A stretch of DNA of 64,000 nucleotides from an uncultured Gemmatimonadaceae bacterium (GTDB lineage Bacteria; Gemmatimonadota; Gemmatimonadetes; Gemmatimonadales; Gemmatimonadaceae): the NCBI GenBank assembly GCA_963817955.1, contig CAWFQK010000004.1, positions 1,088,001-1,152,000 on the forward strand, written 5' to 3'. Position 1 is the first letter of the stretch. Each line of letters starts with the position of its first letter. A model generated the notes under the pieces. The model was given only the letters and a program-made list of their open reading frames with translations, ran no database searches and was not told the origin of the DNA. Positions 28,515 through 35,592 of the stretch are shown here, one piece after another. A program made the position numbers and the translations under genes.

Positions 28515-31138
28515 AGCGGATCCTGACAGCCATCGTACTGCTCGCTGTCGCGCGTGTCGCGCATTCGCAGGAGCGGCAGATGCTGCAGGCCGGCTGGCTC
28601 GTACAGTCATCGGCCAGCGCCGGCGTGGACGGCATGCGCATCTCCTCACCGGCGTACCACACGGCGGGATGGTATCGCGCCACGGTGCCATCGACCGTCG
28701 TTGGATCGCTCGTCGAGGCCGGCGTGTATCGCGACCCGTTCTTCGGGATGAACCTCCGCACGCTGCCGGGAATGACCTATGCGATTGGCGCGAACTTCGT
28801 GCATACCGCAATGTCGCCAGCGAGCCCATTCGCCGTGCCGTGGTGGTACCGCACCAGCTTCCACGTACCAGCGGCTATGCGAGGCAGGCGACTTGCGCTG
28901 CAGTTCAATGGCATCAACTACCGGGCAAATATCTGGCTGAACGGCCGGCGGTTGGCAGACTCGAGCCGCGTGGCCGGCACTTACCGACACTACGAGCTGG
29001 ATGTCACGGATGCGGTGCGGCCGGCCGGCGCCAACGTCCTCGCCGTCGAGATCTTTGCGCCGACCCCGCCCGACCTGCAAACGACGTGGGTGGACTGGAA
29101 CCCGTCACCGCCGGACAAGGACATGGGGATCTGGCAGCCGGCATTCCTCGCCGCAACCGGAGACGTGGTCGTGCGTGACCCACTCGTCGTGAGTCACGTG
29201 GATACAGCCACGCTGCGCAGCGCCGAGCTGACCGTGGCGGCGAACGTCAGAAATCTCTCATCCCATGCGGTGACCGGTGTCTTGCGCGGCCACGTCGGTC
29301 AAGTCGCGTTCAGTCGATCGGTAACGTTGGCGCCGCACGACAGCGCGTTCGTGCGCTTCACGCCGGACAGCTTCCCACAGCTCCGCTTGCGGAATCCGCG
29401 GCTCTGGTGGCCCGCTGAAATGGGACGTCCGGAGCTGAACGATCTGGACATCGAGTTCGCCGCTGGCGGGCGAGTATCGGACCGCCAGCATATCCGCTTC
29501 GGGATCCGCGAGATCACGAGCGAAATGACGAGCAAGGGCGCACGCCTCTTCCGCGTTAACGGGCGTCGCATCCTCGTCCGCGGCGGCGGCTGGGCGCCGG
29601 ACATGTTCTTTCGACCGCAACCGGAGCGGCAAACCGCGCAGCTGCGCTACGCGCTGGACATGCATCTCAACACCATTCGACTGGAAGGCAACTACGAGGA
29701 CGACCGGTTCTGGCAGCAGACCGACAGCCTCGGCGTGCTCGTCATGAGCGGCTGGGTGTGCTGCCTCGCATGGGAGGAGTGGCCGAAGTGGGGCGCGGAG
29801 CAGTACGCGGTGGCGGCGGCCTCACTGCGCGATCAGATCCGGCGACTGCGCGCCCACCCCAGCGCGCTCGTCTGGCTCAATGGCAGCGACAACCCACCGC
29901 CGGCAAATGTCGAGCAGATGTATCTGGACATCGAGCGCCAGGAAGCGTGGCCCAACCCAACGCTCTCCTCGGCAAGCGCAAAGCCGGCGCAGTTCTCGGG
30001 GGCAAGCGGCGTGAAGATGACCGGACCATACGACTGGGTGCCCCCGTCGTATTGGCTTCAGGACAGCACCCACGGTGGCGCATGGGGCTACAACACGGAG
30101 ACCAGCCCCGGCGCGGCAGTCCCGCCGATCGAGAGCATGCAGCAGATGATCCCCGCGCGCGACATCGCATGGCCGCTGGACAGCGTGTGGCTCTATCATG
30201 CCGCGGGCGGCCAGTTCACCCATCTGCTCGACCGGTTCAACACGGCGCTGTCCACGCGCTACGGCGCGCCAACGAGCATTCGGGACTACACCGTCAAGTC
30301 GCAGCTCATGACCTATGAAGGTGAACGTGCGATGTTCGAGGCATACCGCCGCAACGCGTACGGTTCCACCGGCGTGATTCAGTGGATGCTCAACAACGCG
30401 TGGCCCTCGATCTACTGGCATCTCTTCGACTGGTACCTGCGACCCGCGGGAGGCTACTTCGGCACCAAGAAAGCGAACGAGCCCGTCCATGTATTGTTCT
30501 CGTATGACGACCGGTCCGTGGCCGTGGTGAACGCCACGCGCACGTCACTGCGCGGCACGCACCTCCGAGCGCGAGTGCTCGGGCTCGACGGTTCGGAAAA
30601 GCTGGCGCGCGACACCGTGTTCGACGTGCCCGCTGACAGCAGCCTACGAATGTTCATGCTCCCGGAGCCGCCGAACACGTCGGGCGCCTATTTCGTGGAC
30701 CTGCGGCTGACCGGTGCCGACGGACGGGCGATCAGCACAAACTTTTATTGGCTGTCCACACACCCAGACGTGCTGGCCGACACGTCGACGTGGTACGTGA
30801 CACCCGTCAAGGCGTATGCGGATCTTACGGCACTCTCCGGCATGCCGGCGGCCCAGGTGACGGCCAGTGTCCACTTCAGCGGCGGCGGCGGCGGGACGGA
30901 CGAGGCGCGAGTCACTCTCAGGAATCCTGGCACGACGATCGCTTTCTTCCTGCGGCTGCAGGTGACCGGGCGCGGAGGGGCAGAAGCGCTCCCGGTTTTT
31001 TGGGATGACAATGACCTCTCGCTGCTGCCGGGAGAAACGCGCGTGGTGACGGCACGGTACCGCACACGCGACCTACACGACTCGCCGCCGCGGCTCGTGG
31101 TGAGTGGGTGGAACGTACCGCAAGTCACGCTCAGGTGA
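28511..31138 (+). CDS. csxA: Secreted GH2 exo-1,4-beta-D-glucosaminidase-like glycosidase
   Basis: WVDWNPSPPD, LNTIRLEG, WLNGSD, KMTGPYDWVPP, NTETSPG and WMLNNAWPS motifs of CsxA-type GH2; GTGA coupling to the permease. Confidence 0.8.
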   Translation: MKRILTAIVLLAVARVAHSQERQMLQAGWLVQSSASAGVDGMRISSPAYHTAGWYRATVPSTVVGSLVEAGVYRDPFFGMNLRTLPGMTYAIGANFVHTAMSPASPFAVPWWYRTSFHVPAAMRGRRLALQFNGINYRANIWLNGRRLADSSRVAGTYRHYELDVTDAVRPAGANVLAVEIFAPTPPDLQTTWVDWNPSPPDKDMGIWQPAFLAATGDVVVRDPLVVSHVDTATLRSAELTVAANVRNLSSHAVTGVLRGHVGQVAFSRSVTLAPHDSAFVRFTPDSFPQLRLRNPRLWWPAEMGRPELNDLDIEFAAGGRVSDRQHIRFGIREITSEMTSKGARLFRVNGRRILVRGGGWAPDMFFRPQPERQTAQLRYALDMHLNTIRLEGNYEDDRFWQQTDSLGVLVMSGWVCCLAWEEWPKWGAEQYAVAAASLRDQIRRLRAHPSALVWLNGSDNPPPANVEQMYLDIERQEAWPNPTLSSASAKPAQFSGASGVKMTGPYDWVPPSYWLQDSTHGGAWGYNTETSPGAAVPPIESMQQMIPARDIAWPLDSVWLYHAAGGQFTHLLDRFNTALSTRYGAPTSIRDYTVKSQLMTYEGERAMFEAYRRNAYGSTGVIQWMLNNAWPSIYWHLFDWYLRPAGGYFGTKKANEPVHVLFSYDDRSVAVVNATRTSLRGTHLRARVLGLDGSEKLARDTVFDVPADSSLRMFMLPEPPNTSGAYFVDLRLTGADGRAISTNFYWLSTHPDVLADTSTWYVTPVKAYADLTALSGMPAAQVTASVHFSGGGGGTDEARVTLRNPGTTIAFFLRLQVTGRGGAEALPVFWDDNDLSLLPGETRVVTARYRTRDLHDSPPRLVVSGWNVPQVTLR

Positions 31139-31746
31139 TGACGCAACGAGACACCATGCCAGAAGAAACAGAGATCGATACCGACAAGCTCCGCGAGACC
31201 ATCGACGACGAGATCGAGAAGACCGGCGGCACCATGCTCCGGATCGTCGCCTTATGTACTGCGATCCTCGCCGCCGTGACGGCGGTCGTGTCGTTGCACG
31301 CCGGCTCCACGATCAATGAGGCGCTGGTGCTGAAGAGCGAAGCGACCGCGTTACAGGCGCGGGCCTCCGACCAATGGTCCTATTATCAGGCCAAGGGCAT
31401 CAAGAGCGCCATCGCGAGCAGCATGGCCAGCAGTTATGTCGCCGCGGGGCGTGTCGCACCGGACTCTATGCGCGCCACGGCCGCGCGGTACATCAGCGAG
31501 CAGTCGGCAATTCAGACGGCGGCGCGCAAACTCGAGGCAGAGCGCGATGCCAAATCCAACGAGGCCGACCAGCTCCTCGCGAAACACCACCAGTACGCGT
31601 TCGCCGTCGCCCTGCTCCAGGTCGCGATCGCGCTCGGAGCCGTGGCCGCCCTGACCAGGCAGCGAGCGGCGCTGGCTCTCTCGTTGGTTGCGGGATTGAC
31701 CGGGATCGTGGTGTCGCTCAGCGCCGCGCTTCGGCACTACGGTTGA
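31138..31746 (+). CDS. DUF4337-like membrane protein
   Basis: ASDQWSYYQAKGIK and LLQVAIALGAV motifs; TGATG coupling (alternative start 31156). Confidence 0.8.
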   Translation: MTQRDTMPEETEIDTDKLRETIDDEIEKTGGTMLRIVALCTAILAAVTAVVSLHAGSTINEALVLKSEATALQARASDQWSYYQAKGIKSAIASSMASSYVAAGRVAPDSMRATAARYISEQSAIQTAARKLEAERDAKSNEADQLLAKHHQYAFAVALLQVAIALGAVAALTRQRAALALSLVAGLTGIVVSLSAALRHYG

Positions 31747-31787
31747 TTGCGGGAGGGAGGCACCGCAACTCCGCCAATCGAACTCGA

Positions 31788-31822
31788 GGGACACGGGACA
31801 CGGGACACGGGACACGGGACAA
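31788..31822. repeat. Heptamer tandem repeat (gggacac)x5
   Basis: Read directly from the sequence; last unit imperfect. Confidence 0.9.
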
Positions 31823-31862
31823 CGGCTGACTGCGTGCTAACTGCGCTAACTGCGGGCTTGGG

Positions 31863-32108
31863 CTCCGGGTGTTGACCGGCTGGATGTCGCTGGCTGCTCC
31901 GTAGCGGTCGGCCCACCGGTCGGCGAGTTTCGAGTTGCCAGTTGTGAGTTATGCGTTATGCGTTTTTAGCAACCCACAACTCACGACTCACAACTGGACA
32001 CCCGAACCTCGCCGACCGGCGATGGTGGCCTGCAAGCCAGGCACCCTGGTGCGCATGACCAGTATACTGACAACTCACAACTCACAACTGATCACTGATC
32101 ACTGATCA
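31863..32108 (+). repeat. Left arm of a ~245-bp inverted repeat, itself containing an internal hairpin and heptamer runs
   Basis: Reverse complement of 34049-34300 with scattered mismatches. Confidence 0.9.
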
Positions 32109-32118
32109 TCCGCGAAGC

Positions 32119-32325
32119 CCTGTCATCCTGAGCGAAGCGAAGGATCTCTGTGACCGACAGAACAGCTTTTCAACGGTAGAGGTCGCAGCGAACTGCAGAG
32201 AACTGCGGAGAGAAGCACGTATAGGTCGAACGCGAGAGGCGATTCTCCATTCGGGGGTCGAAGCCGGCTGGTCACGAGACCCTACGGTTCGCTCAGATTG
32301 ACACGGCGTCGCTCAGGATGACAGG
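32119..32325. repeat. REP-like inverted pair
   Basis: cctgtcatcctgagcga (32119-32135) and its perfect reverse complement tcgctcaggatgacagg (32309-32325). Confidence 0.8.
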
Positions 32326-32424
32326 CGCCTCGTGTCCGCGGCCAACGGGGCGCCGAAATGGACCTGCATACCGACGGGCGCCCGATGCGCCGGGGTCGAA
32401 AACTGGGAGCAACCGCCTCGGGCG

Positions 32425-33840
32425 GTTGCGATGTCGTCTCAGGGAGTTGCGATGTCGTCTCAGGGAGTTGCGAGTCGCCTCGGGGAACTGCGATGTCGCC
32501 TCCCTGCGTTGGGATATCGTCTCGGAGCGTTGGGGTGTCGTCTCAGCGAGTTGGAGTAGCGTCTCGCCGAGTTGCAGTGCCGTGTCGACGCGCTACAGTG
32601 GCAGCTCGACGCGTTCGGCTGACGGCTCAATGCGTTGGAGTGGCAGCTCTCCGAGTTGAGGTCTCGTCTCGACGGGTTGGGGTACCCGCTCGATGAGTTA
32701 GGGTGCCCGGTCGACGAGTTAGGGTGCTGTCTCGATGGGTTAGGATGGGATCTCGAAGGGTTGGGGTGCCGTCTCGACGCGCTCCGATGGCGTCTCGGCG
32801 AGTTAGGGTGCCGTCTCGACGTGCTCCGATTGCGTCTGGGCGAGTTTGAGTGCTCTCTCGCCGAGTTGCGATCTCAGCTCGATGCGCTCGGAAAGCAGCT
32901 CGGCATCGGGCGCTGCTGTCTCGGCACGCAAGAGAGTCGCCTCGCGGCGATGCGATGCGATCTCGCCGCGGTCGCCTCCCCCCTCGGTCCGTTGCGATGC
33001 CTGCTAGCAAGGCGAGGATCCTGGCTCGCCGCGCTGGGATCCTCGCTCGATCCGTTGCGATCCGATCTGGACACGCGACGATCCTTGCTTGGCGCGTTGG
33101 GGTGCCAACTTGCCGCGTTGCATTGCCATGTCTCCGGGTTGCGATGCTCGGTCGACAGGCTCGCGTTCGATCTCGGCGCGATCGCATTCCATCTCGACGC
33201 GATCGAATTCGATCTCGGCACGATCGATCCCATCTCGGCACGATCGAATTCGATCTCGGCACGATCGATCCCATCTCGACGCGATCGAATTCGATCTCGG
33301 CGTGATCGATCCTATCTCGCCACGATCGAATTCGATCTCGGTGTGATCGATCCCATCTCGCCACGATCGAACTCGATTTCGGCACGATCGATCCCATCTC
33401 GCCACGATCGAATTCGATCTCGGCACGATCGATCCCATCTCGCCACGATCGCATTCCGTCTCGGTGCGATCGCATTCCGTCTCGGCGGAATCGCATTCCA
33501 TCTCGGCACGATCGATCCCATCTCGGCACGATCGCATTCCGTCTCGGCGCGATCGCATTCCGTCTCGGCGCGATCGCATTCCGTCTCGGCGGAATTGCAT
33601 TCGATCTCGGCGCGACCGCATTCCATCTCGCCACGATCGATCCCATCTCGCCACGATCGCATTCCGTCTCGGCGGAATTGCATTCGATCTCGGCGCGACC
33701 GCATTCCATCTCGCCACGATCGATCCCATCTCGCCACGATCGCATTCCGTCTCGGCGGAATTGCATTCGATCTCGGCGCGACCGCATTCCATCTCGCCAC
33801 GATCGACTTCGATCTCGCCACGATCGATCCCGCCTCGCCA
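32425..33840. repeat. ~1.4 kb satellite with 21-bp period (about 67 units), 20-bp variants and higher-order repeats
   Basis: Units such as gttgcgatgtcgtctcaggga on the left and tctcggcacgatcgaattcga / tctcggcacgatcgatccca on the right. Confidence 0.92.
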
Positions 33841-34048
33841 CTCGAGCGTCGGGCGATGATCGTAGTCCTATATATTAGTTCCGAAATTGGGGGGCAGCGC
33901 AAGGGTCAATATGACTGATTGACCAAAAACCGACATTTTTGAACGTTTCAGCGTTAGTACTAGTAGAGAGGTACGGCAGTCCCGTGTCCCGTGGTTGTTG
34001 TGACCCGGGGATAACAGGGGTTCGCGCGGGACGACAGGCGTCGAGGGG

Positions 34049-34300
34049 GATCAGTGATCAGTGATCAGTGATCAGTTGGCAGTTGTGAGTTGTCAGTATA
34101 CGGGTCATGCGCACCAGGGCGCCTGGTTCGCGGGCCACTATCGCCGGTCGGCGAGGTTCGGGTGTCCAGTTGTGAGTTGTGAGTTGTGCGTGTTTTAAAA
34201 CGCGCAACGCATCACTCGCAACTGGCAACTCGAACCTCGCCGACCGGTGGGCCGACCGCTACGGAGCAGCCAGCGACATCCAGCCGGTCACCACCCGGAG
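34049..34300 (-). repeat. Right arm of the ~245-bp inverted repeat
   Basis: Reverse complement of 31863-32108. Confidence 0.9.
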
Positions 34301-34464
34301 TCCACTCCCGGGCCGGATCGGCCTGCAGAACATGGGGATCGGCACACGCCGGTCCCCATGTCTACTTTGTACGTACGAAGTTTCAACATCGACTCGGCGC
34401 GAGTCTTCGACGTGAACGACACGATCGACCTCGCGGAGACCCTCGCCCAGCGGAGTAATCGATC

Positions 34465-35592
34465 ATGTCACCCTTTCGCCTGCTTGCCCTGCTCGCGCTC
34501 CCGTTCGCATCGGTCGCGGCGCAAGACGCAACTATCGTCTACCGCCTTGGCCGCGACACGGTGGCCGTGGAGCAATACACGCGAACACCAACGCGATTCT
34601 CTGGCGAGATGGTGTCGCGCGCCGGCACTGCGGTCACGCGAACGCAATACGACATCACCATCGCCGCTGGACGACCAACGGCTGCCGTGGTCCGTCGGCG
34701 TCAGGCCGACGGTTCGCCCATTCCCAACAATCCGCTCGAGGTCCGCTTCGCCTTCCGCGCCGACTCGGCGCGCCGCGAAATCGTCTGGCGCGACAGCACA
34801 CAGGTGCGGGCCTTCGCCGCACCGAACGCCTTCTTCACGATGCCGGTGTTCGCGTACGCGCCGTTCGAGTTGATCTACGCTCGCGGCCCGGGAGCACGCG
34901 ACTCGGTAATGGCCATCGGCACGACCGGCAACGCCGTGAGCGTGATTGGCTTGCAGCCGTACTCGGGTGACACGCTGCGCATGCACGGCGGTCCATACCC
35001 GATGCTCGCGCGCTTCGATCGCAACGGACAGTTGCTCATGACGGACGGCGTATTCACGACGAACAAAGCCGTCGGCAAGCGAACCCCAGGCAAAGTCGAC
35101 ATCGCCGCGCTCGCCACGACCATGAAACCAACCGGCGTATTGTCTCCACGTGCCACCGCCTATGCAGGGTTCAGTCGCGGTCCGATCTTCATCAATTATG
35201 GGCGTCCAGCGGTGCGCGAACGTACCGTATGGGGCGGCGTGCTCGTGCCATTCGACACCATCTGGCGCACGGGCGCAAACGAGGCCACGCACCTGGCGAC
35301 CTCGAAGACGATGTCCCTTGGCGACATGACACTCGCGCCAGGTCTGTACACGCTGTGGACACAGCACACGCGCAACGGCACGTTCCTCATCGTGAACCGC
35401 CAGGTCGGCCAGTGGGGAACGGATTACGATCCGAAGCAGGACATCGGCCGAGTGCGGATGGACATGTCGCATACCCCGGAACACGTTGAGGATTTCACGA
35501 TCACGATCCGCGCAACGGGCCCAAATCGCGGCGCGATCGACTTGGCATGGGGAGATTCCGTCGCCACGGCGAGTTTTGCTGTAAAGCCCTGA
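34465..35592 (+). CDS. Exported DUF2911-domain protein
   Basis: Signal peptide; INYGRPAVRER, IWRTGANEAT and QVGQWGTDY motifs. Confidence 0.8.
   Translation: MSPFRLLALLALPFASVAAQDATIVYRLGRDTVAVEQYTRTPTRFSGEMVSRAGTAVTRTQYDITIAAGRPTAAVVRRRQADGSPIPNNPLEVRFAFRADSARREIVWRDSTQVRAFAAPNAFFTMPVFAYAPFELIYARGPGARDSVMAIGTTGNAVSVIGLQPYSGDTLRMHGGPYPMLARFDRNGQLLMTDGVFTTNKAVGKRTPGKVDIAALATTMKPTGVLSPRATAYAGFSRGPIFINYGRPAVRERTVWGGVLVPFDTIWRTGANEATHLATSKTMSLGDMTLAPGLYTLWTQHTRNGTFLIVNRQVGQWGTDYDPKQDIGRVRMDMSHTPEHVEDFTITIRATGPNRGAIDLAWGDSVATASFAVKP

Follow-up and report, generated by a model that had tools for sequence, protein, structure and literature searches.

What keeps a step of 21 nucleotides in place along a bacterial chromosome when the sequence repeated at that step changes from one place to the next? 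The question is raised by a tandem array at positions 32425-33841 of a 64,000-nucleotide stretch of DNA from an uncultured Gemmatimonadaceae bacterium, which is referred to here as the window (GenBank assembly GCA_963817955.1, genome G000; contig CAWFQK010000004.1, labelled C4, bases 1088001-1152000). Positions given without a contig label are those of the window. In bacteria, long satellites that are non-coding and have higher-order repeats are considered rare. An initial annotation, made from the letters alone, had presented this one as a lone satellite and missed that the array is the middle of a multi-copy cassette, in which a conserved head, the array, a hairpin-bearing junction and a protein-coding gene follow one another. 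We conclude that the array is very probably a 21-bp minisatellite that does not code for protein and constitutes the middle of a lineage-specific cassette, and this family context of the array is new. With regard to function, we assign a probability of about 0.45 to the array being a transcribed repetitive leader that would end at an attenuator-like hairpin, a reading in which transcription is deduced from signals in the sequence.

Structure and coding status of the array

Our segmentation resolved the array into 68 abutting units (57 measure 21 bp and 11 measure 20 bp), one more than the roughly 67 contiguous units first counted. Tandem Repeats Finder agreed, reporting a period of 21/42 across 32425-32860 (63-79% matches) and, over 33161-33826, periods of 21 (32.1 copies, 78%), 41 (81%) and 83 bp (8 copies, 89%), so that the decomposition confirms the 21-, 41- and 83-bp periods. 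The identity of the array to itself at a lag of 21 was 0.69, compared with a genome background of 0.296 ± 0.039. The array is intergenic, lying between a DUF4337 and a DUF2911 gene, and its units run head to tail without spacers, as those of a minisatellite do.

The array consists of two parts, both assigned to the minus strand. The diverged part (32425-33200) contains 37 units, all of 21 bp save one 20-mer at 32467, and has a local 42-bp super-period; its units hold GTTG and CTCG in register, and their best identity to any other unit of the array ranges from 0.67 to 0.90. The homogeneous part (33201-33841) contains 31 near-identical units arranged in higher-order repeats, with six 41-bp pairs (21+20) followed by 83-bp blocks (21+21+21+20). 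Three of these blocks are perfect copies, and over 33572-33697 the identity of each unit to the fourth unit after it is 1.00. GATC and CGATCG reach 66 and 34 per kb in the homogeneous part against 8.2 and 1.5 per kb genome-wide, and it is only in this part that GATC occurs at eight times the genome density. The young units contain 14-bp palindromes, and blocks with variant units average 20.5-20.75 bp per unit. These results match the earlier description of about 35 diverged units on the left with both motifs in phase, of about 32 homogeneous units on the right in 41-bp and then 83-bp order, and of a right side dense in GATC and CGATCG. The divergence gradient described with them stands in part: the left is indeed diverged and the right homogeneous, but the change is not monotonic, the least similar units lying at 32865-33150 and two identical units at the far-left end.

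All frames on both strands of the array are largely open, as a stop-free unit would produce, and the longest open frames comprise 427 aa on the plus strand and 404 aa on the minus strand. As the period equals seven codons and the left part of the array reads LxxLxxx, these frames could be taken to encode a heptad-repeat coiled-coil protein, either in the plus-strand Leu-x-x-Leu frame or, on the minus strand, as an extension of the gene product at its N-terminus. The two largest open reading frames (ORFs) of the window matched no Pfam family above threshold; a sub-threshold hit was obtained to DUF7310, a family of coiled-coil proteins (17.6 bits; cut-off, 40). This reading is already contradicted by the structure of the array and by comparison of paralogues, and we regard it as hardly credible. 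The eleven 20-bp units break the frame, a TGA at 32620-32622 interrupts the Leu-heptad frame, and the plus-strand start ATG is absent from two of eight copies. In three pairs of paralogous loci, substitutions in the array were distributed over positions modulo 3 as 64/47/67, 76/57/82 and 68/79/63, with no codon-position bias, and pairwise comparison of the arrays revealed many indels of 1-4 nt beside those of 21, 42 or 84 nt. The adjacent gene in the same pairs showed an excess at the third position (7/3/20, 7/4/27 and 10/4/16) and zero indels. Identity between paralogues was 81% in the array versus 94% in the gene in one comparison and 76% versus 94% in another, indicating that the arrays diverge faster. 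Moreover, the gene has its own Shine-Dalgarno sequence and start in every relative examined, and in-frame translation upstream of it is not protein-like.

Thus, the array is non-coding, and the ORFs called across it are by-products. The initial annotation had taken them as such, pointing to the frame-shifting 20-bp units and the TGA, and had named a conserved, translated coiled-coil frame as the finding that would speak against it; the substitution pattern of the paralogues shows none. For genome annotation, the large ORFs called across such arrays are artefacts.

The cassette and its distribution

When the region 31700-34500 was compared with the genome by BLAST, positions 32339-33990 behaved as one unit. 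Eight long copies match it end to end at ~72%, and eleven further places match only its right 150-210 nt, which correspond to the head. These eleven short copies are full cassettes as well, with arrays that have diverged beyond BLAST detection. Read on the minus strand of the window, the order of the cassette is a ~150-nt head, the array with its 21-nt period, the hairpin junction, a Shine-Dalgarno site and the gene for a ~250-aa protein. The arrays of the cassette family span 0.3-1.7 kb and comprise 15 to about 80 units.

The head (33842-33990, minus strand) is the best-conserved part of the cassette, with 21 BLAST matches in the genome. It carries a bipartite motif (33867-33903, minus strand), in which a 7-nt block and a 13-nt block are separated by 18 nt, followed in window coordinates by a 7-bp inverted repeat (33904-33924). 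The motif occurs 19 times in the genome, always at the gene-distal end of an array and pointing to it; periodic DNA follows in 19 of 19 cases and a family gene lies downstream on the same strand in 14. The motif was derived from these same loci, and these counts therefore demonstrate its specificity and not its independence. It is shared by two head types that are otherwise unalignable; local alignments between them in both orientations were either no better than chance or contradictory, with z of up to 5 in each direction. At the other end of the array, the junction (32339-32429, minus strand) contains hairpin 1 (32409-32429), followed by a short T run on the minus strand, and hairpin 2 (~32371-32395). 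This segment of ~86-100 nt with its two hairpins is conserved in the eight long copies and in six of them leads into GGGAGG or GGAAGG and then the gene's ATG. Of these six copies, two have an intact gene (252 and 276 aa) and four carry a frameshift or an internal deletion in it. An intact family protein of 252 aa is encoded at C4:1540985-1541740. In total, tblastn and a profile search detected ~21 family loci in the genome, ~12 of which are frameshifted, deleted or truncated. The cassette has no terminal inverted repeats at its ends (score 12 against a shuffle mean of 13.0, z = -0.48; 389 of 500 shuffles scored as high).

Strong 21-nt periodicity extends over 0.4-1.3 kb before the start codon at 13 of 15 paralogue loci, including those with 30-35% protein identity. 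The unit consensus differs from paralogue to paralogue, leaving the period as the sole shared property. A scan of the genome in segments of 300 nt (lag-21 identity of at least 0.45, with a family gene within 150 nt counted as abutting) returned 51 periodic regions, seven of which are explained by a period of 7 or 3. Of the remaining 44 arrays, 21 abut a family gene, five have a head without a gene and 18 have neither. About 44 arrays in a single genome thus share one period, and half of them are linked in a constant orientation to the same gene family. The 18 unattached arrays are intergenic, each with a private unit sequence (for example, C4:30301-30950, C5:41551-42350, C4:1663801-1664600, C7:126301-127150 and C3:118301-119000), and at 13 of the 18 the flanking ORFs share no family (zero hits in all-against-all BLASTP and with the family profile). 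At C1:440979-442472, two family genes stand in tandem, and an array and a variant head precede only the upstream one (C1:441720-442472). Directly outside the head, several cassettes carry heptamer runs of GGGACAC or its complement, for example at C4:1542920-1542975.

The AlphaFold model of the ~250-aa cassette protein is confident and all-helical (predicted local distance difference test score, pLDDT, 85.5), with two helices of ~55 residues and a disordered tail rich in Pro, Ala and Thr. The protein has no match in Pfam, PHROG, NCBIfam or the PDB sequences, and its model no Foldseek match at E ≤ 0.001 in PDB or BFVD. Its neighbours in the protein atlas are unnamed Gemmatimonadota clusters, and a large protein search retrieved five relatives, all annotated as hypothetical proteins. 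The cassette therefore also offers a handle on a Gemmatimonadota-specific protein family of no assigned function.

The family gene is present in 14 of 40 close relatives and in 58 of 300 other Gemmatimonadota genomes, a tally that includes genome G089; it was found in 6 of 69 genomes of one family and 52 of 125 of a second, and in none of 106 genomes from ten others. Among 28 loci from foreign genomes, lag-21 identity upstream of the gene was at least 0.42 in 16, whereas the control lags of 17, 19, 23 and 25 gave 0 of 28, and the best lag was 21, 42 or 41 at 25. In another set of foreign loci, from the same genus, 7 of 17 showed a lag-21 identity of at least 0.43. Adjacency and polarity of array and gene hold at 23-43% protein identity to the query and in two bacterial families. 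A nucleotide profile built from 15 heads (nhmmer) matched no type-I head and no foreign locus, and nothing was found in a search for related loci in genome contigs with a single cassette protein. Judging from these comparisons, it is the period only, and not the unit sequence, that is conserved across two Gemmatimonadales families. The tie between array and gene has survived across both, though the unit sequence has not.

Candidate roles of the array

Several signals distinguish the gene strand of the cassette from its complement. A rule of our own, which calls a terminator-like hairpin when a hairpin and a T run occur within the last 170 nt before the start codon, was satisfied on the gene strand at 8 of 57 loci and on the opposite strand at 1 of 57; as controls, array interiors gave 1 and 0 of 57 and gene bodies 0 and 1 of 57. 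A scan tool called the junction hairpin terminator-like in an intact copy (L021), but not in the window copy, whose tail has only four T. The Shine-Dalgarno sequence lies within a small hairpin with a stem that differs between subfamilies, and the second junction hairpin shows an exchange of C-G to G-C. Two stems in the head vary only via G-U pairs on the gene strand (CG in 8 and UG in 6 copies for one pair; UG in 9, UA in 3 and CG in 2 for the other). On the same strand, C exceeds G in 24 of 44 arrays and G exceeds C in four, two loci being counted twice, and Rho is present in the genome. Taken together with the polarity of the bipartite motif, these features suggest a long untranslated repetitive leader with an attenuator.

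According to this reading, the head with its promoter-like motif would drive transcription through the array to the gene, and the array would be a long, untranslated and repetitive leader RNA. With a terminator-like hairpin before the ribosome-binding site and a second hairpin burying the Shine-Dalgarno sequence, expression of the gene would depend on read-through, that is, on attenuation. The repeats may serve as a platform for a factor. One candidate is Rho, given that C is abundant and G scarce on the gene strand of many arrays; another is an oligomeric binder, which may be the protein encoded in the cassette. Turnover within the array would proceed by slippage and unequal exchange of whole units, and this would homogenise blocks, build higher-order repeats and give each paralogue a unit of its own while the inherited period stays. 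A sponge for CsrA was also considered. CsrA is present, but inspection of the sequences placed GGA once per unit only in those units of one subfamily that lie near the head; in the other arrays, the consensus units are unrelated to the GGA-bearing ones, which makes a common binder of the CsrA type unlikely.

A number of observations weigh against the leader. Only 8 of the 57 junctions satisfy the terminator rule, 12 of the 28 foreign loci fall under the 0.42 threshold, and the loci from related genomes are kin, so that all such counts overstate independence. No sigma-70 consensus was found in the head, and none of the head pairs differs in both of its bases from the commonest pair. Those head stems that G-U pairing supports are located upstream of the second block of the putative promoter, and therefore the promoter and stem readings of the head are not both fully right. 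The two halves of the window array have opposite GC skew, and z-scores of the minimum free energy single out no strand (minus strand, -6.4 and -1.5; plus strand, -3.1 and -2.7). Finally, an RNA role gives no reason for a fixed period of 21 amid changing unit sequences, and the 18 further arrays of the same period in this genome adjoin unrelated genes; these two facts favour a physical constraint at the level of DNA. With regard to RNA evidence, no RNA run is listed for the organism, and two soil-metagenome DNA runs share 0.11 of the words of the window. Rfam, searched over 31000-35000, returned nothing at or near a gathering score and only sub-threshold matches to microRNA hairpins.

The main rival is a track at the DNA level, in which binding sites or intrinsic bends would be spaced by two helical turns, and either a polymerising protein (nucleoid-associated or the cassette's own) or the curvature itself would set promoter activity. 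The unit sequence would then be free to change provided that phase is kept. This would account for a period that is the only property conserved across paralogues, genera and two families, for variant units that hold the mean at 20.5-20.75 bp, and for the same-period arrays with private consensus sequences beside unrelated genes; orphan arrays persist and expand without a gene, and the palindromes of the young units would also fit. However, searches with the cassette protein revealed no DNA-binding family or fold. The track also leaves unexplained the strand bias of the terminator-like hairpins, the strand skew and the constant orientation from head to gene, and a period inherited from a single ancestral array would likewise be maintained within the family. 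We consider such a track possible, though unlikely on balance. The initial annotation had proposed a repetitive RNA or a phased protein-binding array, and both are still live readings. A more speculative idea, which we consider unlikely, is that arrays with a 21-nt step form a functional class of cis-elements for which the step is important and the sequence is not. In the Gemmatimonadales they may have co-evolved for a long time with elongated helical proteins, the product of each paralogue polymerising, one subunit per unit, on its own array (as RNA or DNA) and thereby controlling its own gene. In the predicted structure, the two helices of ~55 residues would span roughly the length of one unit. 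In either form, the arrays provide a testable handle on why the 21-nt step is kept, be it for DNA phasing or in a repetitive leader RNA.

The remaining explanations assign the array no role, a different one or no existence. A selfish or neutral minisatellite, spread as a dispersed leader-array-tail element resembling a MITE (miniature inverted-repeat transposable element) and linked to the gene by co-duplication alone, is improbable in our view. It would agree with the many copies, the high share of broken family loci, the faster divergence of array than gene, and the existence of orphan copies, including the window copy, which is located within a nest of other dispersed repeats, and its twin (described below). 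Such an element would be expected neither to lack terminal inverted repeats nor to keep adjacency and polarity at 23-43% protein identity in two families, which is hard for neutral DNA in deletion-prone genomes. The initial proposal of a methylation-site array, acting through the methylation state of GATC or CGATCG, drew on the density of these sites in the homogeneous part, but only the young units of one subfamily are enriched in them. GATC amounts to 0-24 per kb in the 15 other arrays examined, and the match to a D12 (Dam-type) methyltransferase is marginal and partial (24 bits, positions 20-66 of 253). As a general role, methylation is therefore not supported, and we regard it as very unlikely. 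An assembly artefact is more improbable still. Long tandem repeats are error-prone, and the exact unit count is that of the assembly; against this, the same architecture recurs at more than 20 places in the genome with different unit sequences and in independently assembled genomes of other genera, and the twin has its diverged units in the same order. Among the explanations considered, the transcribed leader is the one we prefer.

The window copy and related systems

The cassette copy in the window has no gene. Its homology to gene-bearing copies ends at 32339, exactly where the ribosome-binding site would come next, and the nearest family gene is 143 kb from the array. At the position of the ribosome-binding site and start codon of other copies, there is an inverted pair (32106-32336, composed of 32106-32214 and 32267-32336) of a second dispersed repeat. 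Elsewhere in the genome, this repeat of ~105 nt often forms inverted pairs at a distance of 200-350 nt (C2:739263-739650 and C2:756618-757044 are examples), and it looks like a small MITE-like element. A twin of the window copy, ~98% identical with the flanking arms included, is situated in opposite orientation at C4:765244-767769, about 353 kb away. Both are orphans that have lost the gene. They differ by unit indels of 84, 65, about 60 and 43 bp and by almost nothing else. The indels fall at the left end (+84 bp, amounting to four units), in the middle (+65 bp) and at several right-hand places, a spread which shows that turnover occurs all along the array and contradicts the growth from the right-hand end alone that had been envisaged initially.

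The arms mentioned above form a 256-nt inverted repeat around the orphan, with a left arm at 31853-32108 and a right arm at 34055-34310 that is 91% complementary to it. Both arms are members of a family of dispersed foldback repeats, for which 106 matching pieces were counted in the genome. The left arm contains an internal hairpin (31916-31964 / 31971-32019) and heptamer runs, and a (GGGACAC)n run at 31788-31821 (period 7, 4.9 copies, 100%) marks its outer edge. Members of the foldback family (also 31916-32019 and 34144-34247) have an internal hairpin of ~50 nt and runs of the heptamers ACTGATC, ACAACTC and AGTTGTG; the halves of the element, about 110 and 170 nt long, are also found separately and in swapped order. 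This nest of repeats is flanked by the DUF4337 gene (31108-31746) and the DUF2911 gene (34465-35592), both of which are ordinary chromosomal genes, and a gene for a GH2 exo-beta-D-glucosaminidase-like protein (28580-31138) lies upstream of them. A Pfam scan of four neighbouring genes identified the GH2 hydrolase, DUF4337, DUF2911 and DUF5666. The nearest named relatives of the neighbouring hydrolase gene are from soil metagenome-assembled genomes labelled Gemmatimonadaceae or Gemmatimonadales.

Our literature search found nothing on tandem arrays in Gemmatimonadota or on 21-bp arrays in bacteria, and the cassette is best compared with better-known systems feature by feature. The trp leader of Bacillus is bound by TRAP, a known binder, at 11 triplets within about 55 nt. 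By analogy, the cassette would share its order of promoter, untranslated leader with tandem motifs, terminator hairpin before the ribosome-binding site, and gene; in contrast to that leader, it has 15-80 units of 21 nt and is known here from sequence alone. Iterons and partition centromeres, such as sopC of F with its 12 x 43 bp, resemble the array in their tandem sites, which are phased, measure about 20-43 bp and in some cases contain internal palindromes. Unlike them, the array has no rep or par gene among the four neighbouring genes, dozens of arrays occur per chromosome and the unit sequences are not shared. The conserved, AT-richer flank at one end with a homogeneous block beside it recalls clustered regularly interspaced short palindromic repeats (CRISPR), but the units of the array abut without spacers, there is no Rfam match, and no Cas family was present in the four neighbouring genes scanned.

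Dispersed tandem-repeat families without coding function have been surveyed before. In 119 bacterial reference genomes, Subirana and Messeguer (2019) reported dispersed non-coding families of long repeats only in Leptospira interrogans (PMC6749651). The cassette resembles the satellite families of that survey in being dispersed, tandemly repeated and without a coding function. Within the main text of the survey, the terms "21 bp" and "gemmatimon" have no hits, and no link to a gene family is mentioned there (PMC6749651).

The closest described element, compared by its architecture, is BrickBuilt of Porphyromonas gingivalis (Klein et al. 2015). In this element, a 23-nt minisatellite lies between a leader and a tail; it is present in 19 intergenic copies with a maximum of 22.8 units, has small terminal inverted repeats, is described from one species with no fixed neighbour gene, and parts of it show promoter activity (PMC4596501). 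Both BrickBuilt and the cassette are dispersed and intergenic, with a leader, spacerless tandem units and a tail, and both include copies without leader or tail; in both, the number of units varies by copy and predicted ORFs are taken as artefacts (PMC4596501). The cassette differs in its period of 21 nt (20 in variant units) instead of 23, in its up to 68 units in the window, in the apparent absence of terminal inverted repeats and in unit sequences that differ between subfamilies. Above all, in contrast to what is described for BrickBuilt, the cassette has a fixed polarity to one gene family, which is conserved across two Gemmatimonadales families.

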